Of a stretch of 64,000 nucleotides of DNA, positions 1,553 to 61,000 are shown in pieces. Every line of letters starts with the position of its first letter. Position 1 is the first letter of the stretch. This stretch comes from Hormiphora californensis (Eukaryota; Animalia; Ctenophora), in contig CM035353.1 of the NCBI GenBank assembly GCA_020137815.1, positions 992,001-1,056,000 of the forward strand, read 5' to 3'. The translations under genes were made by a program, and so were the position numbers. The notes under the pieces are model-generated. The model saw only the letters and a list, made by a program, of their open reading frames with translations. It ran no database searches and was not told where the DNA came from.

Positions 1553-4500
1553 ATGCTACTTAGTTACCGCTATTACGAAAAGAAAACAGAACCACCCCCT
1601 GTTCTTGTTATAATCAAACACAAAAATGAAGGTAACAATATATGCTAGTAAATTTTCCAATTATTCAATTTTAGTTGTTTTCAATTAAATTCCCTTGATC
1701 TATGTGATTTTATCGCCCGTATAGGTTCTGCGGGGATACGGAAAGTTCAGTTTTTGTCAGTTGGTAATAAGGACGAGGCGGATCAACCAGGAAGTAGCTC
1801 GGAAGATGCCGGCCCCGTTCTACCCAACGAGACTGACTTCTCAGTTAACTTAGGTATTTAGAGTTGATTATAATTAAATCATATCAAATTATATATTAAA
1901 TGTTTGTTGTTTCCAGTTGTGTGGGATTTACAGAAACTCGATTCTTCGGGCGAATATAAACCCCAAATCCTCATTGAGGATTCCTCGTGATTCATTCCTT
2001 TTTTCAGATTTTGCAACAGAACTAGATAAAATAAGTAAAAGTGAACTTCAAGAGCGCCTGAAAAAGTTGGAAAGAGCAAACTCAGGAATTTCTGACAAAA
2101 GTACGAAAGCTGTGCTAAAAAAGTCACTAAAAGAAAAGTAAGACTGCGATCAGTGCACCTCACAACTTTAAATTGCACAACTCTTCTGATCCCGAAGTTA
2201 TCACAATTACCCGGAATATAGTTGCCTAGCTAGACTGTGTTAGAACATAACAAGAATATATAGCTGGTCTTTTAGATTTAAATTCATCCAATTGTTTCAG
2301 GTGTCCCGGTATATTTGCTTGGTATAAGAGGCACAAGAAAATGTTACGAGAGGCGTGGAGGATCGTCAGTATTTCATTTGTTAACTTCCTATACCTATCT
2401 TTTGGTTACTTCTTCTTTACACACTTCCAGGGAAGCCAAGTCAAACAGTGTGAGTGCAACAATTCCAACTGCTACTGATGATTGCAGTGTCTCCTCGTGA
2501 GCACCATGAAACTGCAAATTGGTAATGAAATTACCCCTCCGCGTTATAATAGCTCACGGATATTGTACAACATAATAACAGGGGTGACTTTCGAACGCAC
2601 CCTAGAACACCTTTCTATTCCTTCTAATTGCCGAGATCTGCATACCCCTTATTTTGACTGTTTTTCGCGTCCTACCCTTTATGGGTTTGGGTACGGCCAT
2701 CGCCGCACCCCGTATACGTCGCGGGACCTCGAGCCCTTTCCAACGAGCCATAGAGATCCTCTCTACGACTTCAGGGGCTTTATTAAGGGCCTGTCGGCTC
2801 GGCCCCGTTGTTTTAGGGGGGATGGGTTGAGTTTGGTTTAGATTCGGGTCGGGGGGGGGGGGGGGGGGGGGGGGCTTGCCATGCCCCGAATACCTCTTAT
2901 TTTGATGATTGTTTCAGTAAACAACGACCACTCTCAAAAAGATGAACAACTTACAAAGATGCTGAGTGGTTTTGGCTTCATTACACCGCTCAATAGCACA
3001 GGTATGTAACAAGTGCGTTCCCTGCCGGCCTTTACTCAACATGAGGAAGCCCTTACTTTGTTCATGCATGCATGTATGTAGTACATTACAATGTGCATGC
3101 ATGCATATTGCATGTACATAAAACACAGTAGCAGGGTTTGGAAATTTTAGATTTTCATGCGAATCCATAATATTCAATAAATATTAGAAAAAATAGAACT
3201 ATTTTCACCCTTTCAGTGTATAATAAATTACTGAAGATTGGCAAGCTAAAGTGTATGTTGAATAAAAAGAAGACATCTTTTTGGACTAGTTTTGATTTCT
3301 GCGTATCAGTGATGACAACCGTAGGTACAGAGTACGTATTAAACAGGAATTAAACAGGAAATAAATAATAATAAACGTATACAAAAACACTTGTACATTA
3401 TGTACAATAAACAATAATCACACTACCGCACTACTCAATGGGTCGAACTCATATCAAAAATGAACCTTGGATGTATAATTGTTTTCATGATTCCATATAT
3501 TGTATATATCTGTTAATTGTTTAATTCAATCCTCAGGTTGGGGCTATATATACCCAAAAACGGTTGTGGGGAAGATGTTTTGTATTATCTACGCATGCTT
3601 GGGTGTTCCTCTTTATATCGTTGTGATTGGGATCAAACGGTAACTAACATTTTGTAACATTTGCCTAGCTATAGACTGTCTTTTGGGTTGAACAAAACAA
3701 GTTTTTCTTGTACAAAATTACTTTTATTTCTTAATTCAAACATCTTTTCAATATTGTAATTAAAATCTCAATTATCTAGGTCAGTTTATTGGGTATTTGG
3801 CCCATAAATGTGAGTTTGGGTGCCGTGTGAGACGAATCAGTACTCTCATTCAAAACAGCCGCCTGGTGTACTGTGAACTGTTCAGCAAGTACATTATCGT
3901 TACCCTCCTAGTCGTTCTCTTCATCATCGCATACGCTTGTAAGTACACACCATATAATAACCAATAGATAGTAACAATGTTACTAACAATTAACATATCC
4001 TATCAATAATCTATCATGCATGATACATGTATACATACAAGTGCAGATCTACCAACCAATATGGAGAGTGGAGACATCCTATAATAGGATCGGATATTTT
4101 TTAAGTTCCTGATACATGCCCCTCCCTCCAGGTAGTGTCTATATTAATTCACGGGGTGGTTCTAATCACGATGATGAAAACTTGTTACATTGGACTTGGT
4201 TTGAGAGTCTTTACTATGCTCTCATCTCCCTGACAACCATAGGATTCGGAGATTATTTCATGCCTTCCGCATCAGACAAACATGAGGTAATGTTTCATAA
4301 TGTTATAATGTTTCATATCAAGATCTCTCTGTTTTGGAATATTATCCGTTTTATTTCATTGAAAACACCTCGTCCCAATTATATTATTAATTAATAGTAA
4401 TTATATTAGTAATTATAGTAATGAAACATCCATTTGTTTCAGTTTTACAACTGCATGCAAGGTTTGTTGATTGTCATCGTCATTATCTTTGGTTTCGGGC

Positions 4501-6037
4501 TCTTCACCTACGCCTTCAGCGAGTATACAGAGGCCTCAAAAAGGCAAATGAAGGTGTTGAGGGAGCGATATGAAGAACTGGCTACCAAAAATGCAATCCT
4601 TGCTTTCACCCAGGTATGTACTGCAATCAGGAACCGACACAAGTCACGTGACTGGTTATCAGCCAATCAGGGACCAGTATTCCCTGATTCGGTCGGTTCC
4701 TGATGTACTGCAACCAAATACACTACATGAAGTAGAGTATATTTCAGCTTGTTTAGAATATCTTTAACCCTGTAATTTAGCATTCCTCTGAGGGATGGCC
4801 ACTACCGCCACTACCTCCCCTCGTTATAATTGAAAATGATTATTCCTTTCAGCTGTATACTAACTCCGAGTCCTTTATGGAGAGGTCACAGCAAGCTATG
4901 AAGTCAGGATCTCAAAATATTAGAAAGATATCGTCGGCTATTGAAGAGGTACATATGTGATATTATGATGCTTCAGTATACAACTTCAGTGATATGATAA
5001 TAAATATGATGATAAAGTAATTACGAATGATGATGCTTCAATGCACTTCTGAATAGGTGAAATTAAAGTAAAACTAAATTAGTAAACACACACACACACA
5101 CTCTACTAATAAAACTAAATTACTATTTTCAGTTTAAGAGTAAGTCATCGATAAAGTCAATGAGCCGGGCTGCTTCTGATGTAATGTTAATAAACAAGCT
5201 TTCAAAACGAGCACAGAAACAGAAACAGAGACCAAGGTAAATCGATGAAAAAAAATAACTAATTCCTGTTTTTTTGAAATTATAGCTCAAGAAAGTTTAT
5301 CGTTTCAGTGATGCGGGGATAGAGCGGTGCGGGTCCAGTTCCCCACTCAATATCTCCCCAACCATATCAGTCAACTTTGAGGAGCTTGAGGAATTGGACG
5401 TAAGAGCTGTAGCAAAATTTCATGTCTCGATCTCTCGATCAAGATCTGGCGGGGTTGACCCCGTTTTGATTCTCCTAGATACAGGTCGGCACCTGACATA
5501 TTGAATTAACAGCTCATATCCTTGCAGGTGAAGGATTGTCCGCAGCCCGTAGCGGTTGTACACGATTATGACAGTGATCCGAGTTCTAGTGACATCCCCC
5601 TGCTTGTCCGACAACGCTTCCAAAACAACTTTATACCAGAGCACGATCAAGACTCACTGCATCGACCCAATATCCGCCTTAAAACTTTTTCATCCGAGTC
5701 GGACAGTTCGTACAAGTCACTAACAACCAAATCACCGCCTCTCACCGCCACAAGAAGGAAACCAGTCTGGCCTCTTCTAAACATGTCGGTCACGGAAAAT
5801 CCATCTGTTGTAATCGAACCACCATCAGTACTGAGAGTGCGACCGCCTCCTGTGTCACCAACTGAGGTGGTGAGATCACCAATCACCCTGCAGTCTCCCT
5901 CGCCAATCCTGGTCAGATCACCATCAATGATCACCAGACTCCAATCCCCATCTCCTGTGTTGGTTAAACCGCCCCGGGTTAATAAAATATGGGAGGGCCC
6001 TGCAACCATCACTGTGCAGAGATCACATGACCGGTGA
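1553..6037 (+). CDS. Two-pore-domain potassium channel (K2P/KCNK-like), paralog A, ~688 aa, 14 exons; 1-nt frameshift in exon 7
   Basis: GT-AG exons 1553-1631, 1725-1853, 2008-2137, 2301-2449, 2918-3001, 3217-3324, 3537-3639, 3780-3938, 4132-4286, 4443-4613, 4853-4948, 5133-5236, 5309-5399, 5528-6037. Phases are consistent except after exon 7, which is 103 nt and needs 102. TM1 FLYLSFGYFFFTHFQ; P1 WTSFDFCVSVMTTVGWGYIYPKT; TM2 GKMFCIIYACLGVPL; P2 WTWFESLYYALISLTTIGFGDY; TM4 IVIIFGFGLF; Ser/Pro-rich tail. Exons 1-3 are less certain. Confidence 0.88.
4626..4704. mobile_element. 79-bp mini inverted-repeat element in a K2P intron
   Basis: 13-bp TIR ATCAGGAACCGAC / GTCGGTTCCTGAT; 8-bp direct repeat GTACTGCA at 4618-4625 and 4705-4712. 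Confidence 0.75.
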
Positions 6038-8342: not shown

Positions 8343-11327
8343 TCATTGCCCTAAATCGAGACGGGCCCTAATCCTCTCTCTCTTTTCATGCCCCGGTGTG
8401 TCTGTAACTGTTCCACCATACTCTGGATCAGTAGGTGGAGTATCGGGCTCTTCTATCAGATCGCCTGTCCTGATCATAAAGTTGTGGAGACATACACATG
8501 CCGCTACGACAACGACAGTTTTCTCCACCGTGTAGAAAGGAGCGAGTTTCACAAGGACCTTCCATCTAGACTTCAAAACCCCAAAAGCTCGCTCCACATG
8601 GCCGCGGGCCTTGGAGAGCTTTTTGTTGAACGCGGCCTTGGAAGTGTCATTCGAGGTATGTACTGTGGCATACCCCTTCATCAGTCCCTGACTTAGCGCG
8701 AACGCTTTGTCCCCCACTAAATGGTGATCTTTGTCCAATTTCCGCACAACCTCTGGTAATTCTGAAGACTCGAACACCGTGCTGTCACCCTGCCTTCCAG
8801 GGCAGCCCACGTCCGCAAAAACGAACGAAAGGTCCGGGGCCGCTACTGCCAGCAGAATAATGGTATACTTCTTCTTGTACACTGTGTAGTAATCCTCTCG
8901 TTGTCCACTGTAAACCTGAAATGCACAATAAATTATCAACAATGATGACTTTACGACGCCTATCAGTACGAGATACAGATTGGTGACATCAGTTATACCC
9001 CGTAAAAACGAAAATATTTCCGTGATGGAGGGGTCAATCGTAACCGGGAAAAGGCGAAATGCTCACAGAACTATTCTCTACTAGCTACAACAATATTGTT
9101 CAATTCTGTGTCGGTCCACTGTCAAGTTCGATCTCAAAATGTGCACTACGTGTAAGGAAGGATTGCCTCCCTCATCCATGTATCAAAATTTTGAAACAGG
9201 GTTGTAAACAGGGTTTGGAAAAATCAAAATTTACACACCTGGACAGGGATGTGGGACCCGTCCACAGCACCAACCACACCCGGAAATCCTGATCGACGTT
9301 CAAACTCTGCGGCGTCATCATTTCTTCGCTGCTCATCCATTGCTGGCCATGGTAGAAGCTCGGTAATAAGGTCGCACATCTCCACAACAATTTGCCGCAC
9401 AGTTGACTCGGCGATTCCGAACAGTTTCGACATTGAATGTACAGAGTCACCATGGGCAAGCAAGTACAGCGTCATCTAAACAAAATAGTGTAAAATGTAA
9501 TATTGTATCTGGCATGGTGATTCGCTACACCATATATACTGACCGACCTGCGAAGCAGGAAGTGCGGTATTCCTATCATTTTTTTGGAAAACGATACATT
9601 GCAAGCGCTTGCAAGCTATCGGCTATCCGTAGGATGGCCGCGACTCTTAGTATTTATTGTAAGTAATGCCACCATAAAATATTAATTATTATATTGATAT
9701 TAAAGTGAGAGGTGCACGAAAACCAATAATGTCTAACCAATTGTGTGTAACATTCCTTGGTGTCCCATGGGGGGGGGGGGGGGGGGGCTGAGGTTTTTGA
9801 AGTCGAAAATTCAAAAACTTCAAAAACCTATAAACCAAGAATTAGAAATGATCGAAATTTCGGCTTGATTTTGTCCGTATGATTTGAGTTTCGAAACTTT
9901 CAGGAAACTTTTTTTCTATAAAAACCGATGGAGAGCACTAATCAAAGTGTTGAGGATCATTCCGAAAAAAATTATTGGTGTCAACTTTTGAAGTCAACTT
10001 TTGAAGTGAATTTTGCCGAAAAATGTGTGTCTCATGATATGTATTAACATGTTAAACATGTCTGTGCCCTGTAAAAAGCTTATAAAATTGTTTTAAAAGC
10101 GCTAATAATGAATTATCAAATATGTACTTTTGAAGTTTTTTTTCAAAAACTTCAAAAACTAAAATGGGTAGGAAACTTCAACTTCAGCCGCCCCCCCCCC
10201 TGTCCAATAAAAAATTTGGTGAAAAGAATAAAGATGACGTCTCCATATTGTGTTTGAAATTCATTCGTAATTAGGAACGTGCGTCGTGCATGCATGTGCG
10301 AGCTTCAAATACAAGAAAGCAGCATGGGACCTTCACTAAAATTTGGTAACGCAATTACCCCTACATTGCGGGCACGCTAAAATGTGCCTTACTATCGCAA
10401 TGCCCTATGTATCTACAGAGGGGTAATTTCGTTTCCAACACTAAAGTGTTCCATGCTTTTGTTTGAAGCGTAACATAGAGACGTCATTATTTCACCAAAC
10501 TTTTAATTGGACACGAAGGAATGTTACACACAAAAGGTTTAGACATTATTCCAACTTTCTTTTTCGTGCACCTCTCACTTTAAAGGAATCCCCACGCAGC
10601 AGTAGCCCTGACTTGGGTTTTGTGAAATTTCTCACGGCCATTGCTCCACCCATTGATAAGATTAAAACATGAAAGTTGGAGGCTATAAAGAAATCGACAT
10701 GATAAGCCTAGCCTCAACATCTAAAGTTACCATCTCATCAGGGGGTGAAGCAATGGCCGTGGGAGTGGGGGCTATTATTGCTTGGATTTTTACTTAGATC
10801 TGTCTTTCTGTACTTCGAACACAATTTGCTTATCGGAACAAAATTTTAATATACAATAATACTGTTCACTGGCAGCTAATCTTGCTTTCTCTCTCACATT
10901 CACAATATACAGATGTACTTACTTTCAGTCTGAAATCCATGGAGTATGCTTTTCTCATGACCGTATCCTTTTTTGCAAATGGCTGCAAAAGTGTTAGCAG
11001 GTGCTGGAAAGTGTCCCTGGTTACACGGTAGTCCCCCTTAAAATCCTTGTCCGAACATGAACTGCTTGTATCCGCAAATGGTGGGCGGTCTTTCGATTGT
11101 GTCTGTAACAGATAATTCATAGTAGGTATTATTGGCCCCTTTTTTACTCTTTACAGGCGATTTGGTAAAAGGTTTGGGTGTCATCGCATCTATCTACGTC
11201 TAAGATCCCGAATTGCCAAACTTACCGTTCGGATGTAACTTCTCGGTGGAGAAGGTGGAGGGGGTGGTACAAATGTATCGACGACCATGTCATCATCGTC
11301 CGTAGCTAACGTCAGTAACAAATCCAT
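8343..11327 (-). CDS. Harbinger/HARBI1-like DDE transposase (DDE_Tnp_4), ~363 aa, 4 exons, intact
   Basis: Exons 11327-11226, 11102-10923, 9475-9239, 8915-8343 (all introns phase 0, GT-AG). Motifs DFKGDYRVTRDTFQHLL, HTH region SKLFGIAESTVRQIV, GFPGVVGAVDGSHI (D), GCPGRQGDS, LVGDKAF (D), FNKKLSKARGHVERAFGVLKSRWKVL (E), ACVCLHNF. Confidence 0.93.
9704..10579. mobile_element. Kolobok-type MITE in transposase intron 2
   Basis: TTAA|AGTGAGAGGTGCACGAAAA ... TTTTCGTGCACCTCTCACT|TTAA; long imperfect inverted arms. Confidence 0.75.
9766..10202. mobile_element. Insertion nested in the left arm of the Kolobok-type MITE
   Basis: CATGGGGG(n)CTGA ... TCAGCCG(C)nTG ends flanked by duplicated (TG)TCC. Removing it restores colinearity with the opposite arm (GTGTCC-AATAAAAAATTTGGTGAAA). 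Confidence 0.7.
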
Positions 11328-14176: not shown

Positions 14177-15158
14177 TCACAGTTTATCTAAGATTTGTTT
14201 AAGCAGAACATTTCTTTCTCTCATGATATCCTGGATCTGTGTGTTATGGCGTTTCTGTTCTTCTGCCATGTTACCATGAATCTCCTCTATCGTCTTCCTC
14301 CGGATTGCCTTCTGAAGTCGGCCATTCGGTCCCGTCGTCAGTCGGGCATCAGGTTTTATCAGGGCACTGGTTCCAAGCTGTTGGTGTAGTGTCTTGAACC
14401 AACCCGGTTCTTTCTTCGATTCAGCTCCTGAAGTAAAATATTTGTTAGTGTGTTAATGTACATCTCCATGAGAGGGGTGGATGATGAGAAGTTTAACTTG
14501 TTTGATGCAACAGGTGGAGGGGGTTCAGTGGGCTGAGAAATCTACACGAGACAATTATCGACTACACAGTTGACTCCCCACATTTGTACCTGTATCATTG
14601 CCCCTTTTCTTCATTACTTCAAAATAGTGCTTCCTGACCGCTGCCCACTTGTCAACCGCGGCCTTGCCAGATAGGGAGTGTCCGGGGTTCGCTATAACCA
14701 GTTCATTAGCGATCAGACCCATGATATGGGCCTGGGAGTGTGTTTTTTTCATTGCAAGGTACTTATCTGAAAATATCAACTCCACAAAATCCTTGACTAC
14801 GATTTCAGGCCATGGAAATCTCTTAACACTGCAAAAACGGATTTTGGTTAGATCAAACCCTACACTTATTACAGTTTCGAAATGAGGTTGTCAGTATATA
14901 ATTCAAATAACGAGATGTCACAAACATAGTTGGTGAACTTTTTCTGTTTGGTAGAGTAAGCTAGAGCAAAGAGGAGCACTCATTCATTGAGTAAACAGAC
15001 TAAACAACTTACTTATTATACTGAAAACATTGAGTAACCTACCTCTCTGACTCGTCTTGGTTTGTTGCTGAAGACGTTCCCTGGGCCGTAGTAGCTGCTT
15101 TTTGCTTCCTAAACATGTATTGATTTAATAATTTGTTGTACCAATAACTAATAAAACA

Positions 15159-18659: not shown

Positions 18660-20372
18660 GGTTAAGATGGAGAACGGTTTGGAAAAAATTGACAAAAAAA
18701 TGGGGGGGTTGGGGGAGGGAAAAACTGGATTGGTCCCCTTTGTGTGGGGGGCTGGAGAAACATTGGTCTTTGCATAAAATGTGGGGGGAGAGTGGAGATG
18801 GAGGGAAAAAATTTGACAAAAAATGGGGGCTGGAGCTGGATTGGTGCAATTTGATGAAAATGTGGGGCTGGAGAACGGATTGGTAACAAATTTGACATAA
18901 AAAGTGGGGGGGAGAGGGGAGAACGGATTGGTGCTTGCAAAAATGTGGGTGGAGAAATGGTTGGTGAAATTTGTGGAAAATGGGGGGTGGAGAAACTGGT
19001 TTTGGTAAAAAAATTTGACATAAAATTGGGGGGGAAAAGGGGGGAAACGGGATTGGTGAAAATTTAATTGGGGGCTGGAAAACTGGATTGGTGAAAATTT
19101 TGAAAAAAAAAAGTGGGGCTGGAGCTGGTTGGTACTTTTTGATAAAAAAATTTGTTTGTCAAACCCTCCTTTATTTTGTAACACAGTCTAGCTAGGCCAA
19201 AAAAAAGGGTGGGGCTGGAGAACTGGATTGGTAGCAAATTTGATAGAAAATGTTGGGGCTGGAGAACTGGATTGGTAGCAATTTGTTTAGAAATGTGGGG
19301 GGTAACTGGTTTGGTAGCAAATTTGTAAAAAATGTGGGCTGGAGAACTGGATTGGTAACAAATTTGATAGTGGGGGAAAATGGTTTGGGTTCAACCCTCT
19401 TTACATTTGGGGTAAACCCCGGTTGGTAAGCAAAGAAAAATGGGGGCTGGGAGAACTGGATTGGTAGCAAATTTGATAGAAAATGTGGGGCTGGAGAACT
19501 GGATTGGTAGCAAATTTGATAGAAAATGTGGGGCTGGAGAACTGGATTGGTAGCAAATTTGACATAAAATGTGGGGCTGGAGAACTGGATTGGTAGCAAA
19601 TTTGATAGAAAATGTGGGGCTGGAGAACTGGATTGGTAACAAATTTGACATAAAATGTGGGGCTGGAGAACTGGATTGGTAACAAATTTGACATAAAATG
19701 TGGGGCTGGAGAGTGGAGAACTGGATTGGTAACAAATTTGACATAAAATGTGGGGCTGGAGAACTGGATTGGTAGCAAATTTGATAGAAAATGTGGGGCT
19801 GGAGAGTGGAGAACTGGATTGGTAACAAATTTGACATAAAATGTGGGGCTGGAGAACTGGATTGGTAGCAAATTTGATAGAAAATGTGGGGCTGGAGAAC
19901 TGGATTGGTAGCAAATTTGATAGAAAATGTGGGGCTGGAGAACTGGATTGGTAGCAAATTTGACATAAAATGTGGGGCTGGAGAACTGGATTGGTAGCAA
20001 ATTTGATAGAAAATGTGGGGCTGGAGAACTGGATTGGTAACAAATTTGACATAAAATGTGGGGCTGGAGAACTGGATTGGTAGCAAATTTGATAGAAAAT
20101 GTGGGGCTGGAGAGTGGAAAAACTGGATTGGTAACAAATTGACAAAAAAGGGTGGGGCTGGAGAACTGGATTGGTAGCAAATTGATAAAAATGTGGGGCT
20201 GGAGAACGGGAGGGTAAAAATTTTTGAAAAAATGTGGGGTGGAGACTGGTTTGGGTACAAATTGACTAAAATGTGGGGGGTGGAGAATGGATTGGTACAA
20301 ATTTGAAAAATGTGGGGGGGCTGGTTGGGGTAAAAAATTTGCTAAAATGTGGGGCTGGGTGGAGGGAAAAAG
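18660..20372. repeat. 43-bp tandem satellite inside the Harbinger element
   Basis: Unit AAAATGTGGGGCTGGAGAACTGGATTGGTAGCAAATTTGATAG with a GACAT variant and occasional +7-bp copies. Clean at ~19450-20180, degraded at the flanks, and runs into the N gap. Confidence 0.92.
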
Positions 20373-26370: not shown

Positions 26371-29300
26371 ATGGCTCCGGATATTGTAACTTCTGTTATT
26401 TTGTTAATTGTAAACATAGCTTTCCTATGTTTTGGAGGCCTTATTTTCAGTGTCATTGAGTCCAACGCCCTTGATAAACAGGTGAGCTGTACAACAGTAC
26501 TTTCTAAATCTATATGGCCGTGAAAAGAACAATATAATATATCTCAATCCCACTGATGCTGTTATTCTCAAAATCAAATTCCTGCAGCTGGCGCGATATG
26601 CGGAGATTAGGGGCCAAATGCACGCAGCAGCGGACAGACCCGGTTACCCAGGGTAAGTGTATATAAACCTATTAGGCCCCCTCTAGGTAGGGTAGGCCAG
26701 GTAGGGTAGGGTAGGGGAGGTGCATATAATCCTATTATAATGAACCTATTAGGGCCCCCTCTAGGTAGGGTAGGCCAGGTAGGGTAGGGTAGGTGTATAA
26801 TCCTATTATAATGAACCTATTAGGGCCCCCTCTAGGTAGGGTAGGCCAGGTAGGGTAGGGTAGGGTAGGTGTATAATCCTATTATAATAACAGTTGCTGT
26901 CTGATGGCTCCGACCCCGTTTCGATTATCGAGCGCTGCCAGACTCTAATTGACCTTTGTGATCACGCAGTATTTTGATGCTCTGTACTGTTTAGGCTTGA
27001 TTATCTGGTGAATAACGCGACAGTGAAATGTGGAAATGAACGTGTAGTGCCGTGGACATACGGTCAGTCCTTTAACTTCGCCCTCTCGATCGTGACTACT
27101 GTTGGTACGTATATAACTAGCTATTAATGTATGATAATGATGTGATACTAAATAATTATACCAGGCTGTGTCATGTCCTAACTTTACTCTTTCCTGTCTA
27201 GGTTGGGGAGTCATGTCCTAACTTTACTCTTTTCTGTCTAGGTTGGGGAGTCATGTCCTAACTTCACTCTTTTCTATCTAGGTTGGGGAATCATGTCCCC
27301 GTCTAACTTTACTCTTTTCTGTCTAGGTTGGGGAGTCATGTCCTAACTTTACTCTTTTCTGTCTAGGTTGGGGAGTCATGTCCTAACTTTACTCTTTTCT
27401 GTCTATAGGTTGGGGAGTCATGTCCTAACTTTACTCTGTCTAGGTTGGGGAGTCATGTCCTAACTTTACTCTTTTCTGTCTAGGTTGGGGAGTCATGTCC
27501 TAACTTCACTCTTTTCTGTCTAGGTTGGGGAATCATGTCCCCGTCTAACTTTACTCTTTTCTGTCTAGGTTGGGGAGTCATGTCCTAACTTTACTCTTTT
27601 CTGTCTAGGTTGGGGAGTCATGTCCTAACTTCACTCTTTTCTGTCTAGGTTGGGGAGTCATGTCCTAACTTTACTCTTTTCTGTCTAGGTTGGGGAGTCA
27701 TGTCCTAACTTCACTCTTTTCTGTCTAGGTTGGGGAGTCATGTCCTAACTTTACTCTTTTCTGTCTAGGTTGGGGAATCATGTCCCCGTCTAACTTCACT
27801 CTTTTCTGTCTAGGTTGGGGAGTCATGTCCTAACTTTACTCTGTCTAGGTTGGGGAGTCATGTCCTAACTTTACTCTTTTCTGTCTAGGTTGGGGAGTCA
27901 TGTCCTAACTTTACTCTTTTCTGTCTAGGTTGGGGAGTCATGTCCTAACTTCACTCTTTTCTGTCTAGGTTGGGGAGTCATGTCCTAACTTTACTCTTTT
28001 CTGTCTAGGTTGGGGAGTCATGTCCTAACTTTACTCTTTTCTGTCTAGGTTGGGGAGTCATGTCCTAACTTTACTCTGTCTAGGTTGGGGAGTCATGTCC
28101 TAACTTTACTCTTTTCTGTCTAGGTTGGGGAGTCATGTCCTAACTTCACTCTGTCTAGGTTGGGGAGTCATGTCCTAACTTTACTCTTTTCTGTCTAGGT
28201 TGGGGAGTCATGTCCCTGTCTAACTTCACTCTTTTCTGTCTAGGTTGGGGAGTCATGTCCCCGTCTAACTTCACTCTTTCCTGTCTAGGTTGGGGAGTCA
28301 TGTCCCCGTCTAACTTTACTCTGTCTAGGTTGGGGAGTCATGTCCCCATCTAACTTTACTCTTTCCTGTCTAGGTTGGGGAGTCATGTCCTAACTTTACT
28401 CTGTCTAGGTTGGGGAGTCATGTCCCCGTCTAATTTTACCACAAAGGCTGTGGTGTGTATATATGCCCTCCTTGGTATACCTGTATTTGCTATGCTCATC
28501 GGACTCATCAAAGATAAATGTGGGAGGATGTTCAGGAAAATGGTAAGTTGCATCTAATATACTATCTAATACAGTCGGACCCCGATTTACCGGGAGGATA
28601 ATCTTCCCCCGAAATAGGAAATTAACAGTATTTGACCCCGATATACCGGGCATCCCGATATACCGGGCAAAACCCTTTCCCCCGAGCATCCCGGTAGAAT
28701 TAATTTCATTACCAAGGATACACTACGATTCTACTATATGTTAATTCTCTCACTCTCTCTGCAGGTTAAGGTATCCCGTGATGTTAGTTGGTATTGGATC
28801 CCCCTTAGCTTTGTCATTTTTGTGACTGTCTTTGCAAATATCGCCGTCAACATGGGCTTAGAGATGGGGAAACAGAAACTAAAGGACATACTGGGCTTTG
28901 AGTGCACTGTCATTGAACCATTCAAATATTGGCAGGTCCGGTATACTAACTATTACATATATAGGGTTGGCTCCATTGCAACCTATTCTCGCTCCGCGAA
29001 GAATGTATGTGAGATCGATCTCAGTCGCGCGCGACGTCGATCTCACTCAGGTATATCATGTCAATGTGGCCAACATATAGGGCTTATCTCCATCTAGTCT
29101 TTCTTTGAGTAAAGAATTGTAAAACTATAACTACTAAAAGAGTTTTCCAAATTCGAATATTTCAGGAGAATTCCTCTATTTGGGACGCTATTTACTTTGG
29201 ATTTATTACAGTCAGTACGATTGGTTTCGGTGATACATATCTCAGGTAATATCTCATGAGAGTCATGATCAGGGATCCCTTAGATATTCATGTTCATGTT

Positions 29301-29789
29301 TGTTTTGTTATAGGTACATAGACAATTGTTAAGACTGTCTTGTACTCGGTACATGAGCAATACAAAATACATACTGGTAATTTTGTTTGATTAATTAATG
29401 TTAATCGAATATGCGTCGACCTAATTACCCCATATATTTATAGGGTGAGTGAGTGCAAAGGAAACAGTGCAGACAGCGTCGTTTCTGCTATCACTGGATT
29501 CGTCCTATTCTCCTATCTCCTAGGTAAACAAGATTGATTAATAATTACGAAGCTGTAATAATTTGTAAAAATAAAACACACTTTTGGCTACATAATATAT
29601 ATTTGATTTAGTTGAACACCCCCCTCACCTCTTATATCTGTTCCAGGTATGATAGGACATCTGTTTGATGTGCTTAGTGAGAAGTCCCAAAGTGGATTCA
29701 CCCGACTCTCAGCCAGACTGTCCAAGAGATACAGTGATACAGAATCAAGCTCTAAGGGAACTACAGAAAACCGCCGGTATGGCGGGTAA
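26371..29789 (+). CDS. Two-pore-domain potassium channel (K2P/KCNK-like), paralog B, ~297 aa, 8 exons
   Basis: Exons 26371-26481, 26588-26652, 26995-27104, 28409-28542, 28765-28935, 29166-29245, 29444-29523, 29647-29789 join in frame. TM1 AFLCFGGLIFSVIE; P1 WTYGQSFNFALSIVTTVGWGVMSP; TM2 KAVVCIYALLGIPVF; P2 IWDAIYFGFITVSTIGFGD; TM4 AITGFVLFSYLLG. The 3' end could extend further. Confidence 0.88.
26666..26890. repeat. Three-copy G-rich tandem repeat (~70-75 bp) in K2P-B intron 2
   Basis: AACCTATTAGGGCCCCCTCTAGGTAGGGTAGGCCAGGTAGGGTAGGGTAGG...TATAATCCTATTATAAT three times. Confidence 0.88.
27170..28430 (+). repeat. 40-bp minisatellite (35/42/45-bp variants) built from the intron-3/exon-4 junction of K2P-B; 31 AG|GT junctions
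   Basis: Unit GTTGGGGAGTCATGTCCTAACTTTACTCTTTTCTGTCTAG. I counted AG|GTTGGGGA junctions from 27201 to 28408. Only the last continues into the full exon. Confidence 0.95.
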
Positions 29790-29917
29790 CCATGGTAACC
29801 AGTAACCATGGTAACCATGGTAACCGTGGTAACCATGGTAACCAGTAACCATGGTAACCATGGTAACCATGGTAACCAGTAACCATGGTAACCATGGTAA
29901 CTGCATGGTAACCATGG
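29786..29917. repeat. (GTAACCATG)n 9-bp tandem repeat
   Basis: Direct reading. Confidence 0.95.
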
Positions 29918-30316
29918 TCCTTTGCCGCGATGTTGTCAAAAGTGCAGGTTGAAGACTATAAAGGAGCAGTTTATTTTTTGTGTGATATAAAACTGACTCA
30001 GATACAAATTTTAATTGGAGTAATGCACTACGAAATGCCTTGGGTTTCTCGACAAGTTGGCCTTCCAATGACAAAACTTAGAGGGAGGTACTATATAATT
30101 AGACATTTCAAAAACTTTAAAACATTTCAAACATGTTAAATGCTGTGATTATATCAAGAACTTTTCGATTGTGCTTTATTGATTTCTGTTGGTAGTCATG
30201 TATTCATTATATTACACTGATATAATTTATCGAGAGTGAAAATAAATTGAATTCAAGGTTGATGAAGTACCTATTAACATGATGTGTAACCGTTCAGCTG
30301 ATAAATACCCGGCTTC

Positions 30317-32769: not shown

Positions 32770-35700
32770 TGACATTTCCTACCAGATAAACTTTGAATTA
32801 GCTTAAACGGCTGAGTGGTTCGGCGGTGGCATGAGACTGGAGCGAAGGGTAAACAAGGTTGTAGGACTTTAAGGATTGGGCTCGGAAATTGCTTTTCCCT
32901 CCGAAATAAGGTTAACTCGGTCCTGGGTATGATGGTAGAGAATGATTTGGACATCTTAGCTCTAACTGAGACCTGGTTAAAAACGGGAGAGACTGCTGTG
33001 GAAGCCGAAGTTGCAGAGTGGAGGCATAAATTAGTAAGTGCTCCACGGAAAGGGAAAAGAGGGGGAGGGGTTGCGTTTATGATGAGGAATAAGATCAAGT
33101 ACTCTCGATGTAACACTTCCCAAAAGTCTTTTGAGTGCTTGGAGATTTTCGTGAAAGGGACGGTTGGTGTTAGACTTGCGGTTGTCTATCGAACGGGGAA
33201 TGATTACGGCCATTTCATTACGGAGTTTGGGGCATACTTGAACTCATTTCTGTCTAAAGGAGGTACTCCAGTCATATTGGGTGATTTTAATGTAAGGTAC
33301 CAAGATGATTCTGATCGCTTTACTCAAAAATTCAAGGGACTTTTATCGATGGAGGGATGGTCTCAGCATGTCCTGGGAGCGACACATATCAGAGGTGGTT
33401 TACTGGACCTGATTCTAACCAGGGATACGGATGGTACGAACCTTACCGGGCTGGAGATTTATCGGTCACCTGTTCTTCCTGATCACTCACTCGTTAGTTT
33501 TTCTATGGATGTAGCTGGTTTCAGTGCTAATAAGGCCGTTAAGGTTGTACGAAGTCGTAAAATGAAGGACTTGGATATCGAGGATCTCAAGGAGGACATT
33601 CTCCAATCTGACCTGTGTGATGAACTGCCCAACGATCTGGATGACTGTGTAGAACTCTACAACTCCTCACTTACTTCTTTCATGGACAACCGAGCGCCTG
33701 TAATAACTAGAGTGGTTAGTGAGAGGGACGAGCAATGGTTTTCAGAGAACTATGAGGTATGCCAGGCTGCGAAAACTGAGAAAAGGAGAAAGGAGAGGAA
33801 ATATCGTGCTGTACTCAAGACGTCAACAGATCCTGCTGAACTTGTTAAACATTTTAACGCTTCAAAAGAACAGGAAAAGGACTCCGAGAAAATCTTGAAT
33901 GAAACGAGGGAAAAGTTCTTCTCCAAAAAACTTGAATTACAGAAGGATGATCCACGGGGAACATGGCAAACAACGCACCATCTAATGGGGACTAAGAGGG
34001 TGGAGGTTATGCCGGGACACATTGAAAAGGACAGGCTCGCAGACTCTTTCATGGCGGCATTCAAGGGTAAGGTTGATAAAATCTATCGAAAAATGGAGGA
34101 GAAGCTACGAAATGAATCTGATGGTCGTGAATTACAATACCTAACTCAATCTCCAAATGCACCGCGAGTGCCATCATTCAAATTTCAACCGGTGTCTGAT
34201 ACAGTCTTAAGATCGACCATTATGGAGATGGGAACGAAACATTGCGAGCTGGATCCTATACCCACTTCTTTTGTCAGACGATTATTTGGAGAACTCCTCC
34301 CGGTCCTATCTAAGATAGTGAACGACAGCCTATTATCTGGTAAATTCCCTACTGCTTTGAAAACTGCTCTTATTCGTCCTTTGATTAAGAAGTCAGATCT
34401 TGACGCCGATGATCTGGGTAACTACAGACCTGTCAGCAACCTACCATTCCTTGGCAAGCTCATTGAAAAGTGTGCAGCTGATCAGTTCGTCAAGCATCTG
34501 GAAGATAACAACCTTCTATCGAGACATCAATCTGCATATAGACAGCATAAAAGCTGTGAAACTGCCACCCTACGCATATTTGACGATTTGCTAACACTGA
34601 CGGACGAAAGATCGAAGGTGGTGCTCCTGTTATTAGACTTGAGTGCGGCTTTCGATACGGTGAACCACTCGACACTCCTCAAACGATTGGAGCAGCTATA
34701 TGGTGTCAGTGATACCTCTCTTGACTGGTTCCGGAGTTACCTTACGGGTAGGGGTGCTTCTGTGATGGTGGGTGAGTTGAAATCGGCTTTTACTGAGTTG
34801 ACTATTGGAGTGCCTCAGGGATCGATCCTGGGTCCTATTCTGTTCATATGCTACACGAAGGAGCTGGAACTAATTGCTGAGAAACACGGAGTAGGTATCC
34901 ATTTTTACGCAGATGATACCCAGGTGTACGCTGCATATTCAGCGGATGACTTCTCTGATATTGAACAGAAGTTGCAGGCCTGCGTTTCGGATATACAGGC
35001 CTGGCTCACGACTAATTTTCTCCAACTGAACCCTACAAAGACTGAAGTTATGATCCTATCTCCCAGAGGAAGTACCTCTGTAGACTCAGTACAGCTGTTC
35101 AAAGAGGGCACACCCACTGTGGTCACGAACTCGGCAAGGAATCTGGGGGTGTACTTTGACTCTAAACTCTCCATGGATGAACATGTGTTGAAGGTGGTCA
35201 ATGCATGTAAGTCCACTCTGGTTAATTTATGGAGAATCGCCGGGAAGTTGTCGCGAAGACTAAGAACATTACTAGTCTGCAGCTTGATCCACTCCAAAAT
35301 GGATTACTGTAACTCCCTGATGACCGGAATGACAAAGAAGAACGTACAAGAGCTTCAAAAGATCCAAAATGCCGCATCACGTTTCATCTATGGCCAGAGG
35401 CGTTGGCGAGGTACGACCCAGCTACGGAAGGAGCTTCATTTCCTCCCGGTCTCTGAGCGAATTGAGTATAAAACCTGTGTTCTGGTATTCAAATGCTTAA
35501 ACGGACTTGCACCCGACTATCTTAGTGGTCGCCTGCTTAAGAGGAAAACAAAATCAATAGGACTGCGTGCAGATGGAGATAAACTTTTGCTTGAAATCCC
35601 CCATCCAAATTACAAGACAACTGATCGTGCATTCAGCGTATCGGGACCTCGACTATGGAACAAACTGCCAAGAGAATTGCGTGAATCAGAGACTCTAAAA

Positions 35701-36074
35701 CGTTTTAAAGTGGATCTAAAGACGTTTTTGTTCTGTAGGGCTTTTGGTGTGTAAGGAGCTGAAATGTCCATTGTGAAAATAGGAATCCGTTGAATTTCTA
35801 GAGTTAGTAGGAGCCAGGAGATATAGAGGAGGTTGTTTGTGTGTCTGGTGGTCAGTTGTATACTTATTATTGTGTGTGTTCTAGGAAGTGGAGATTTGGG
35901 AGTTGATTGGTTTCTTTTATGTGACGGATCCCCAGAACTCGGTAAAAAAAGAGCCTGGGTTAAAAAATCAAAAAAGCAAAGAAAAAAAAGAAAAAAAAAA
36001 AAAAGGAAAAAAAAAAAAAAAAAAAAAGAATCAAAAAAAATCAAAAAATCAAAAAGAGGCAATAATAAAAAGAA

Positions 36075-55330: not shown

Positions 55331-57677
55331 ACACTTCCTTCACCCATCTCCATACTGATCTTCAGTCTGTACTTTCTCAGGAACGCTTATAATGATTCTA
55401 TGCCTGATTCTATGCCTGCTTCTATTCCTGATTCTATGGGCTCTACTTCTCCATTTAATGAAAAAGTTGACAGAACCCACTTTCCTCTCCATCTTTTCCG
55501 CTAGCTCGTCCAGTTTCTTCTTGCTTTCGATGAATCTTGGTATTGTCTCCACTCTCATCGTGTAGTAAGTGGTCGTCAGATTCACTATCTTCCATAGACC
55601 GTCAGGAACTAGTTCAACGTCCTCTCCGATGAAACCTGCGACTTTTATACACCTGGCGCCCAGGACCCACGTCCTCCGTTGTATCATAATTCTCTGACAT
55701 TGCTTCACTTGTTTTTGAATAAGTATGGAGACTATAGACCTTCAAGGTCATATAAATAAAGATTAAACAATGGAAAGCACAGTATTCAGTCTCATGGTCA
55801 TGAGTTTCAATGATATCATATTTTTTAGCGTACCGTTTCCTTCAGCACCAATTGATATGCTGAGCAGCTGGACACGTTTCTCTTCTTTGATGTCAAGATC
55901 TTCACAGGCTATTGTTCCAACCATTCTTTTAGGTCCTCGGATTTACCACTCCCATTGCTCCATCTGGAGTTTCTTGGATGCTGTAGCCATTGTAGGTTCG
56001 GAATTCTCGTCGCCAATTGATGTGTTTGGGATCGGGTTGAGACTTGATAATCCTTGTAATTCTTGTCAGGACCTGGAATTTTTGGGGGGCAAGCTAATTT
56101 TTCACCAAATGTTACCCAAGGGTCCCCTGAGCCACCACAAAAAAGTCTAAGAGTGAAGTCCTTGCGGAGAGGTCATTTCCGGGCCACGCCCCTATTTACC
56201 TGCATTATCAGTCATAATTCCAAAATTATGTAAATCCTCTTAGGAAAAGAGTAGAGAAAAAACCAAGGGCACTAAAGTGATCAGCGTCCTCACATTAGTG
56301 GGGGTAGGTGCAAAAATTAAGTTTCTATCTGGTCGCGTTAATGAGTTAATTGGATAATTAGGTGCACGAATAACCGTTTTTGGCCATATGGCTATAGCCA
56401 CTTGTTGTTGTTGTTGTTGTTGAAAGCGGTTGGTGCATTTTGGGGCCTTTGTTAGGGGCCCACGGTTGACCATGGAAGGCTTCCCGGGTTTGGGATTAGC
56501 CACCGCTGGGGGTTACAAGTGCACGTGAATAAATGGACTGAAGAACTTGGTTACCACCGGGATGTCGAGTTGCCGTGAGGCGTCTCGGTGGGTTTGTTGT
56601 GAGATGGGTGAGGACCGGGGCTACCCCATGACAAGGTGAGGAGTGAGGGGGGGCGCCCCGGTATTTTTATTTTCAAGCTTTTTGGTTTCTTTTATGAATT
56701 CCAAGAATGTGTGTCATCTCTTGGTGGTAGATTAGAGTCTCGTCGTCATAATCCTTAGAGATCACCGCCCTTTGGGTAGGGGTTCGGGTACCTGTGGAGG
56801 TAAGGTCTGGTCAGGGAAGATTTAGAGGAATATTGCAAGCAATGGAGTTAACTGAGGGTGTTACTTTGTTAGAGTTTATTTTCTATGTCTAGTCTAGGTC
56901 TTTGTATACTAACCGAGCATTGTGAAAGCAGAACACACACAAGAATGCAGTAAAACAGAAGTGGTGCCTAATATTAGGATTGCTCTCCCTCTTCAGGGGT
57001 AACTTTCTAGAATTATTACGTCACTGCTTTGTTCTTGGAAGATTCTATGTAATCCTATCGCGCGTGCCTATCCGCGCTCAGGGAGTATGGACTTTCGTTT
57101 GGGCTGGGGCTTCGCGCCTTACAGATGTGCACCCTATTTATGACCAAGATTTAATGTTATTTCTTAACATGTTTACTTATATGTTTGGGGACGAGGTAGG
57201 GGGTTTTAGTTAGTTGACTGATGTATGTTAGACAGGGGGGTATGTTCTTACCGTGTGTGTTTATAGTCTGTCCCGATTCGTGGGTCTGCACTCCTTTGTC
57301 TTGGAGGGTCGGAAATGGGGTTTGCGTTGTCGCTTCTTCCATGCTTGTGTACACGGTAGCAAGTATTATCAGAGACAGCAGAAGTGATAGTGTCGGGTCT
57401 GTGTCCCCTTCTGTAACGCGTTGATAGCGTTTCGATTTGACTGCCATTTTCGGATGGTGATCCTAGAGATAGCTAGGGGATGGGGGAGGGTGTTAGCATG
57501 TCTTACGTTGTTTTAACCTTTAGTAGGGGGGTTTTTGGAGGGTATCCAGTGTTTCTCGACTTAACATCTTAACTCTGTCGATACATACTGACGGCAAAGT
57601 TATTTGTTTTTTATGGGTCCACTGCGTTTTAGTGACACAGATCGGGTATAAGTCCCCTAAGAATTTTAGAAATCTAT

Positions 57678-58023: not shown

Positions 58024-61000
58024 GTGAAAATTTGGATACATCGGTTTCACATAATTTCCACATAATTACCACGTACAGTTAAAACATCTCATAAAAACTC
58101 TCTTTGGACACAACCGCTTCACCTGATTTTCTCGTAAACATTAACGTCATTTATTTTTCAGTCATCCCATTTTGGGCACCATCCCTATTACAGGGTACCA
58201 TCCCGTTTCTGGGCTCCATCCCGTATTTGGGCTCCATCCCTTTGCAGGGCGTCATCCCATTTCTGGGCGGATCCTTAGCGTTAGCTTCGGGCAGAGGGGG
58301 GGGGGGGTTGGTATCGAGCCAAGGTACTTGGGCCCAGTGCACTACTAACTGGGGTACTGGTGTACACCAACCCAATTTAGAGTGAGCAGTTTAATGTCAT
58401 GCTCAGGAGATGTCTCTTATCTTACGAGAGACTAGTTGTGATTTGACCGCAATCTTTGGACCATCAGCCAGTAAGGCCCGCGGCAGTGGGACTGGACCAT
58501 AAGACAGACATACATGTAGACCTACATACCACAACATAGTACAGAACAGGGTCCAGCTGGCACGAAGAACTCATTTCTAAGTTCCCCCCACTGGCTATAG
58601 CCACTTTGGAATGGTTTAGAGACTTTTCACTGGTGCCATTTTGTAGGCAATGGCTAACTTGTGGGGGGTCGTGGTCGGACTTTTAAGCTCTATCTTCAAC
58701 TATTGAGTCCATAAACGCATACGGAAATACACCTTTTCTGTACAGAAGCGGTGCAAGTTCCAATTTCTGTATATTCTCTGGAATCTCTGGAATCTCTCTA
58801 TCAAGGTCCATTTTGGTTCTGCTAATGAAAGGGTCCTCATTTCCAAATCCAGGAATCTCGAATCTCGATTGAAGGTGTCGACCACCCTCATTGAATGAGT
58901 ATGCATATCATCGTCTTCACAAATATACCCGACCGGAACACGTGGCATGTTGTCCGCAGTAAGCATGAGTGAGCGTCCCTTTAGCACGCCTTCTAGAACA
59001 GCTTTCCCGACCGGATCTGTGCCTGGATTCCGTGCAACAATAATGTTCATATTTATATTTAAAATGAATAGTTCATATATACGAATTTAATAAAGAGTAT
59101 ATTAAAGAATATAATTGTGCCGGGTAGAACGGAGCCCGGGTAGAACGGAGCCCTCGGAGGTGTACAAAGCAATAAATGATGAGGTGGCTCCGTATTCTCT
59201 CATGTAAGGAAGACTAAGCTGTTTTAATAATACTTATATCATAATCAATTTTACTTTTAATTAAAGGTGCTGCTATCAAGTGAGCGGAACATATACTGAA
59301 CGATACCACTCTCACAATGGGAGCGTTATCTTCTATATGATAATTAATAAATTTCCTTTTCTCCTTTCTCTCCACTGCGTTGGTGGCGTTGCAGTTGGTG
59401 GTGTCGAAAACCATGGCCACCGCGTTGTCTCTGCAGTTCCAATCATCTTACCTTGCTAATTTGGGGGCCTACTAGATCCTGTGAAAGTGCTCCACATGTT
59501 ACCTTGCTAATTTGGGGGCCTACTAGCTCCTGTGATTTGTGTGAAAGTGCTGGTACAGCTAGGAGTTTAATACATCCCTAGATGTAGGGTGATTCAGCGC
59601 CCCCAATCAATGCTTTCACTAGGTATTGTATAATGAGGTGTGTTGGACGAAATTATCGACTTACAAAAGTTGTTACATTCGTATATTTCCGGTATGGGTT
59701 TGCCACCTTCTCCACATATATATTCCCCGTCCCTTACTGCAATCACCTCGGCTTGGAGTAGTGTACTTTTCAACTTCTCCTTTATCTTCTTCCCTAGATC
59801 GGTGCACTTCTTCAGTGGATCTGCGGAAATTGACATTGCAGAACTGTTCTAAACTTTTCCCTGTATATTACATGAACTATAAGTATAACACCCCTTTGTC
59901 CTAAACTTCTGTTTATATGTCAAGTGTCAACAATGTGTTTGTTGACAACTAGAACCTCTGCCAACAGGTATATTGGGCCACCACATGTAGCTTATTGGGC
60001 CACCATGCAGTTTTCTCTTTCTTTTCTGTTCAGTATCCATGACATTGCTTGTTATGAAATGAGTATGGGGAGACCATCACATGGTCATATAAACATGGTC
60101 ATATAAACATGGTCATATAAACATGATAAATAATTAATTAAACAACAGAAAGTGCAACATCAGTCTCATGGCCGTGAGTTTCAATGTTATTATTTATCCG
60201 ATACATTTCAAGGAAAGCGTTTTATTAGAAAGTTACCGGGGGGATAAAATCATACTGGCACTGTGATCTGAATTCCTCCAAATCCATTTTCTTGGACACA
60301 AAACCTTTCGGGGAGGGATGCACTGGCTTTTTCACAAAAGCAACCAGATTTCGACTCGGATTCCCTCGTATAGCACTTGATTCCTTCCTAAGAGGAACCC
60401 CCACTCCCTTATCACCTTCGCATGATCTCGCATCAACTATTATACGTTATATAATGTTTTAGAATTCAGAGGATTCTGAGGTAAACTTGACTCCATCTAA
60501 GTTCATCCATGTTCATCCATGTTGCACATCGCTCGCTGCACATCTTAGCTATACAACGAGAACATTACAGCATTTATCATACCTGTAGGAAGACCCTCGC
60601 GACACGTTTTCGTACGCTACAACATACACAAGTTGGTCAGCACAGACCCGGAATAAAGTTCCTTCCCAAAGTATGCCAAATTGGCATGGTGGATTGTGCC
60701 GGCGGTGTGGGTTTTGTATTCCCTAATAATATCCGGGAGAAGATGGCGCTTTTTGTCCCATCCGGGTTCTCAACCGCCTGGTAGTACGGGTAGCCAGTAC
60801 CCTTCTTGCATATGGCGTACCGGACTCTTCCCGCCACTCGCCAGTTCTCCTACTTAGATGAGCTGCAGAAAATTGAAAATCGTCCTAATACAAATTCCGG
60901 GCCATTAGCGAAGTGATAACTGGTTCGTTATTCGAATTCTTTTTATCTCTTTACCTCACTCCTCACTTTGCCCCATTTATGTGTACATGTATGTATTTTC

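Follow-up and report, generated by a model that had tools for sequence, protein, structure and literature searches.

A polymorphic, derived splice-acceptor minisatellite at the filter codon of a predicted K2P channel gene in Hormiphora californensis

The third intron of a predicted K2P channel gene in Hormiphora californensis ends in tandem copies of its own 3' splice site, placed directly at the selectivity-filter codon. Here, we demonstrate that this array is a real, polymorphic and derived splice-acceptor minisatellite of the mirage kind. The closest known kind consists of the amphioxus (lancelet) "mirage" minisatellites together with the human CBS 844ins68 allele. The locus lies in a window of 64,000 nucleotides, by which we mean the whole stretch of DNA that was analysed. 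What sets it apart is that its 31 acceptors, placed at a filter codon, have not decayed and that its alleles differ in reading frame. How the gene would be spliced is a matter of graded probability, and on balance the sequence argues for direct use of the last acceptor.

A predicted K2P gene and its acceptor array

The host gene was modelled by eye from open frames as eight predicted exons on the forward strand, running from 26371 to 29789. Exon 1 (26371–26481) starts with a predicted ATG and carries M1; it is a by-eye open frame without a Pfam match. Exon 2 (26588–26652) is followed by exon 3 (26995–27104), which encodes pore helix 1, matches PF07885 at positions 19–40 (E 0.036), and contributes its last base as the first base of the filter Gly. 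Exon 4 (28409–28542) supplies the remainder of the filter and M2, matches PF07885 at positions 40–74 (E 1.1e-4), and ends at the donor ATG|GTAAGT. The profile is thus left in exon 3 at position 40 and re-entered in exon 4 at position 40. The model is completed by exon 5 (28765–28935), exon 6 with pore 2 (GFG; 29166–29245; PF07885 E 4.1e-7), exon 7 with M4 (29444–29523), and the coding part of exon 8 up to TAA (29647–29789). The pieces in exons 3 and 4 each score under the curated cut-off of PF07885, and exon 6 scores over it. Two pore domains and four transmembrane segments, the hydrophobic segments being read from the translation, lie in one frame, as in K2P channels. This frame is of 297 aa when intron 3 is taken as 27105–28408 (1304 nt), the other six introns being of 106–342 nt. 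Intron 3 is predicted to be of phase 1 and to split TTV-G|WG. A homolog search with exon 4 as the sole query left none of three candidates passing.

Other repeats are present within the gene. Intron 2 holds a tandem repeat of three 71-nt copies (26666–26888), and a 9-nt tandem repeat begins at the stop codon (29785–29918). MITE-like short elements of very high copy number (summed depth 1e4–1e6) occupy 28570–28696 in intron 4 and about 28985–29078 in intron 5. Both are common to a relative, organism B, whose intron 3 seems to contain the start of the 28570–28696 element.

A second predicted K2P gene sits 20 kb upstream on the same strand, at about 1727–6037. Its model was also made by eye and is provisional, as the frame slips at two upstream junctions. 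It has GWG in pore 1 and a long Ser/Pro-rich tail. The same phase-1 intron (212 nt) is found in this paralog, within about 2918–6037, and the exon behind it also begins with GTTGGGG, without an array. Two of its introns, predicted and frame-consistent, are of 49 nt (5237–5285) and 43 nt (5485–5527). The caveat in an earlier note on this DNA, that 35–45 nt is shorter than the other introns here, is therefore weaker than it was claimed to be.

The array itself begins behind a unique 5' part of intron 3 (27105–27169, forward strand), which carries the donor GTACGT and was delimited by splitting the sequence at the junctions. TRF places the repeat at 27170–28425, with a period of 40, 31.2 copies and a score of 1874, the highest of 84 rows for the window. 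There are 31 TAG|GTTGGGG junctions, whose AG ends run from 27201 to 28408, in line with the earlier report of 31 tandem copies of the 3' splice site in the intron of the filter Gly. A partial first unit (27170–27201, forward strand), made of exon-4-derived letters from 9 on and then the acceptor tail, ends in acceptor 1. The 30 full tandem units that follow (27202–28408, forward strand) end in acceptors 2–31; they are defined by TRF and the junction split and are backed by a depth match in sample X1 and a 45-nt contig in sample X5. Eighteen of them are 40 nt long, six 45 nt, five 35 nt and one 42 nt. Every one of the 30 starts with GT, contains CTAAC and ends with TAG, in keeping with the anatomy that had been described.

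The long unit has its template in exon 4 nucleotides 1–31 (28409–28439, forward strand), the source of the GT, the GGGG run and CTAAC. Over about 31 nt, long units differ from these letters at one or two positions, and an acceptor tail of 9–14 nt completes them. The GT of each unit is the completion of the split Gly codon, and the branch-like CTAAC is the Ser-Asn coding sequence of exon 4. This composition, exon start joined to acceptor tail, agrees with the proposal that the array is a tandem duplication of an AG|GT junction. Long units are grouped beside the real exon (units 27–30) and appear again at units 4, 10 and 16, a spread that would be expected of block duplication.

The predicted consequences for the reading frame differ among units. 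Acceptor 31 opens the full 297-aa frame of the predicted gene model, and acceptors 1–30 (the decoys) all lead to a premature stop, after 101–146 aa, as the earlier note had it. In 23 of the 30 units a stop follows directly on GWGVMS; reading continues through the six units of 45 nt, and the frame is shifted in unit 29. The claim that 35- and 40-nt copies give GWGVMS and a stop fails for unit 29, which is 40 nt long and lacks that stop. Read-through of 45-nt copies was rightly described, with six units in frame, but the exact 15-residue string quoted for it occurs in none of the six, each being one residue off. The quoted string fits a unit found in X5.

Samples, haplotypes and the origin of the array

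Nine sequencing runs were listed, seven with part of the stretch and none recorded as RNA. Five of the nine (X1, X5, X7, X8 and X9) were compared at the flanks, using assembled contigs only. In X1, a contig at depth 18.5 joins exon 3 to the array. With a depth of 209, the major 40-nt unit of this sample reaches 11.3x the array-linked haplotype, and the 35-nt unit, at 84, reaches 4.6x; a k-mer simulation from the window sequence gave 12.6x and 4.0x. Two rare units stand at about 2x where 1x was expected, and a contig at depth 23.5 fits the junction of units 3 and 4. X1 may be the assembly's own sample, and this depth match thus tests for an artefact and not for the spread of the array.

The array is real and no assembly artefact, while its exact unit order and total count rest on the assembly. 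An assembly artefact had been named beforehand as an outcome that would undo the finding, and the unit depths in X1 do not support it. It is barely credible that the array, or most of its length, was created by assembly. In favour of this reading are N gaps and contig ends of low complexity in the assembly, an array that is spanned by no contig, a unit 6 to which none of the listed contigs corresponds, and two rare units at twice their expected depth. Against these points, the depth of the common units in X1 is within about 15% of that in the window, the junction of units 3 and 4 has its own contig, and X5 holds units independently.

X5 is another sample, from another study. Its 45-nt unit, which is in frame and without an exact equal in the window, has a contig at a depth of 1050, compared with 86–112 per haplotype. 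A first-unit haplotype is present at depth 85.9. The 40-nt unit is absent among the seven matched contigs of X5; since contigs lose variants and the filter drops some, this indicates a different make-up rather than a strict absence of 40-nt units. In one X5 haplotype, AG is inserted behind 27167, leaving a CTAG|GT-like remnant to the left of the partial first unit. This remnant may hint at a decayed earlier unit or at the original acceptor.

A second haplotype of intron 3 was found in X1 (depth 17) and in X5 (depth 111.6), with unrelated sequence after 27115. That sequence is found nowhere else in the window and is perhaps an insertion. As the unit depths in X1 fit a single haplotype, the second one would likely carry few or no units. 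Within a single species there thus seem to be segregating alleles whose units differ in frame. The two remaining runs add little: in X9, taken to be RNA by guess, a single 47-nt contig matched a dispersed repeat and exons 4–8 had no contig, which says nothing on expression, and X8 (organism C) was uninformative, with no contig matched at the flanks.

The polarity of the array was set with one outgroup, organism B (X7). A 285-nt contig of B passes from exon 3 across 133 other letters to a single acceptor and into exon 4. Intron 3 of this organism is 146 nt long, and depth across the junction is 25–44, without a pile-up. Having a single acceptor in this relative implies that the array is derived. 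In two contigs of B, the identity of the intron is limited to the last 10 and the last 4 letters before the exon. It follows from this poor match that the exon-like letters at the left edge of the array would be a truncated copy and not older microhomology. The microhomology between intron end and exon start, which had been proposed as the seed of the array, seems instead to have come about through the duplication. The array could go back to a single duplicated junction, multiplied afterwards by slippage or unequal exchange, and the 40- and 35-nt forms would stem from two 5-nt deletions. At 28434, the other X1 haplotype shares a C with the units.

In exons 3, 4, 5 and 7, comparison with X1, X5 and X7 lists 30 distinct coding differences, every one of them synonymous, where 22% would be expected of random changes; 26 further difference rows lie outside this count. 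Exon 3 accounts for five listed differences, all synonymous, and those listed in exon 5 are likewise. Seven synonymous differences look derived on the window lineage (one of them polymorphic in B); under neutrality, P would be about 3e-5. Such changes may have arisen before the array did, and they consequently show no decay but do not prove expression of the array allele. Selection keeping the AGs intact was considered and set aside as not needed: if about seven point-like events fall on 45 positions, the AG is spared by all of them with a probability of 0.73.

Choice among the acceptors

Splice sites were scored with small PWMs, built from 16 donors and 15 acceptors of both predicted K2P genes, the introns of which are unverified. 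On this scale the array acceptors score 5.4–9.3, compared with a leave-one-out median of 6.5 for the 15 other predicted acceptors, and the gene must indeed skip 30 good-looking acceptors, as had been claimed. Acceptor 31 scores 7.7 and is not the top of the 31. It is neither locally stronger nor more accessible than the decoys, which counts against the explanation that we favour. A hairpin acting as acceptor selector was rejected, as the folds of the units do not surpass those of shuffled sequence (z −0.5 to −1.1) and acceptor 31 is no more open than the decoys. In folded units, the unpaired probability of CUAAC is 0.03–0.34 in short units and 0.25–0.49 in long ones.

It is nevertheless reasonable to think, with somewhat more confidence than doubt, that the spliceosome takes acceptor 31 in one step by exon definition and that leak is removed by NMD. 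Acceptor 31 would be favoured as the sole one abutting a complete exon 4, the unduplicated 100 nt or so included. It would pair with a strong donor 134 nt downstream, the decoys having no usable donor of their own. This exon 4 donor has a leave-one-out score of 4.73, the fourth of 16. Exon lengths counted from the decoys range from 169 to 1341 nt, and only acceptors 30 and 31 give a length within the 65–199 nt that predicted internal exons have in the two models. Distal choice may be aided in a CBS-like manner by the GGGG run of every unit, and transcripts leaking to decoys would meet a premature stop and likely be degraded. If the spliceosome passes over the upstream acceptors in this way, as seems likely, the gene would tolerate the array as a repeat within its intron. 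In vitro work by Reed and Maniatis in 1986 reportedly found that the full exon beside a duplicated acceptor decides acceptor use. In genes with short introns, pairing of splice sites across the intron is common. The other predicted introns of the two K2P models are short (43–342 nt), and such pairing would therefore favour acceptor 1, with its 97-nt intron, and counts against distal choice.

One clearly less probable reading, although one to be taken seriously, accepts the same origin and holds that the array makes a leaky or null allele, splicing often halting at acceptor 1 or another decoy. The mRNA would then hold a premature stop or, where 45-nt units are involved, inserts of 15 residues in frame behind the filter. 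Such an allele would be kept in heterozygotes beside array-free haplotypes. Decoys that score level with real acceptors are what this reading needs, and the 97-nt intron ending at acceptor 1 would be of normal length. X1 moreover looks heterozygous, the other intron haplotype having a depth of 17 against 18.5, and a paralogous K2P gene stands 20 kb upstream. It is at odds with the intact frame in the window and the 30 listed coding differences, none of which changes a residue, and with the presence of the array in two samples from two studies with differing left borders and unit types. Splicing is also normal in published mirages. A segregating array that sets K2P channel dose allele by allele is unlikely. 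If it did so, arrays of 35- and 40-nt units would send leaked transcripts to NMD, and subunits lengthened by additional 15-residue repeats after the selectivity filter would come from 45-nt arrays. The allele series (none, 45-nt, about 30 mixed units) would then measure how the last among 31 equal acceptors is chosen, possibly by stepwise removal.

Recursive removal or intron gain is less probable still. The 97-nt intron would be taken out first and the regenerated GT would serve as donor, the array leaving either as one 1.2-kb intron or as serial mini-introns of 35–45 nt. The intron-like anatomy of all 30 units and the predicted 43- and 49-nt introns nearby suit this scheme, and introns have been demonstrated to arise by duplication of AGGT (PMC3443670, PMC4974935). 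The regenerated donor, TTG|GTTGGG, weighs on the other side: on the small PWM from unverified introns it scores −2.3, under all 16 predicted donors (lowest −1.8), and being weaker than all of them it counts against recursive splicing. It has T at +3, found in 0 of 16 predicted donors, and 29% of the 4030 GT sites in the window score at least as high. The same donor would arise at the real exon 4 and at the array-free paralog exon, where its use would remove the exon. The junctions do have AG followed by GT, an arrangement shared by 6 of the 15 other predicted acceptors and therefore nothing unusual in these genes, and the only GT start in the duplicates is this weak donor. Recursive splicing is described for long introns with conserved sites (PMC5126111), whereas this intron is of 1304 nt and has no internal sites in organism B. 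The last step would still require distal choice. The mini-introns of the earlier note thus find little support, and its suggestion that copy number acts as an NMD dial fares no better. Such a selected rheostat, in which copy number and unit frame set productive versus NMD-targeted or dominant-negative channel mRNA, would explain why the array sits at the filter codon with all decoys intact and is polymorphic, yet we consider it very improbable. The array is missing in B and probably also from one X1 haplotype, the main unit is frame-breaking in X1 and in frame in X5, AG integrity is expected by chance, and two more tandem repeats in the gene (those in intron 2 and at the stop codon) are blind to function.

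Known systems and neighbouring sequence

Amphioxus mirages are described from the globins BflGb6 and BflGb9 and from Adh3 (PMC3087553), with troponin C (TnC) and PGBD5 added later (PMC3902484). Splicing of the Adh3, globin and TnC mirages was normal, and somatic instability was reported for Adh3 (PMC3087553, PMC3902484). As in the BflGb6 mirage, the present array is a tandem duplication of an intron's 3' end together with the 5' portion of the next exon. Amphioxus mirages have units of 10–160 bp, many with AG/GT, allele-length differences, and edges unlike the interior. The array has all of these features: 35–45-nt units lie head to tail in 31.2 copies, each made of the exon 4 start and acceptor tail across the intron-exon boundary, with AG/GT signals in 30 of 30 units, and its make-up differs between X1 and X5, with a second intron haplotype, lengths being estimated from depth only. 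BflGb6, as described there, has 6 and 3 units and AG/GT is not kept in all, whereas here there are 30 units and 31 of 31 AGs are intact. The branch-like motif here comes from exon codons, unlike in the amphioxus mirages. Normal splicing was checked in amphioxus, and the present array is known from DNA alone.

The human CBS 844ins68 allele likewise is a duplicated intron/exon junction that segregates. There, the distal acceptor of the duplicated junction is used, promoted by G runs (PMC2630376, PMC1802585). There is one extra copy of 68 bp there, compared with 30 of 35–45 nt here. The distal choice in CBS is experimental and from a mammal, and acceptor 31 here has the same surrounding G runs as the decoys.

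Intron gain via AGGT duplication (PMC3443670, PMC4974935) is a more distant likeness. Here, as in the potato case, AG|GT lies within the duplicate, and the duplicate extends over an intron-exon boundary. A new intron needs a working donor, and the sole GT start here scores under all predicted donors. Recursive sites and zero-length exons share YAG|GT junctions within an intron. Those described in PMC5126111 are conserved, lie in long introns and read GTAAGT in Drosophila, unlike the lineage-specific GTTGGG sites 35–45 nt apart in this 1.3-kb intron.

The locus offers a clean test case, with all 31 acceptors intact and about equal in strength and with a relative that supplies the pre-duplication state. 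It bears on exon definition in a short-intron animal, and on whether minisatellites at splice junctions are carried along without effect or give rise, unnoticed, to loss-of-function alleles.

Several other features lie in the window. A 43-nt minisatellite of about 20 copies (19437–20317) extends up to a contig end of low quality, which is followed by an N gap, with no recognised gene there. Exon-like open frames on the reverse strand at 55340–55741 and 58700–59086 are without a Pfam match at E 0.01. A piece of DDE_Tnp_4 (Harbinger-type) transposase lies on the reverse strand at 8343–9062, with possible companion frames near 10866–11150 and 14177–14890. A non-LTR retrotransposon frame on the forward strand (32815–35754) is uninterrupted over 979 aa and covers endonuclease and reverse transcriptase, its closest database relatives being 64–66% identical.
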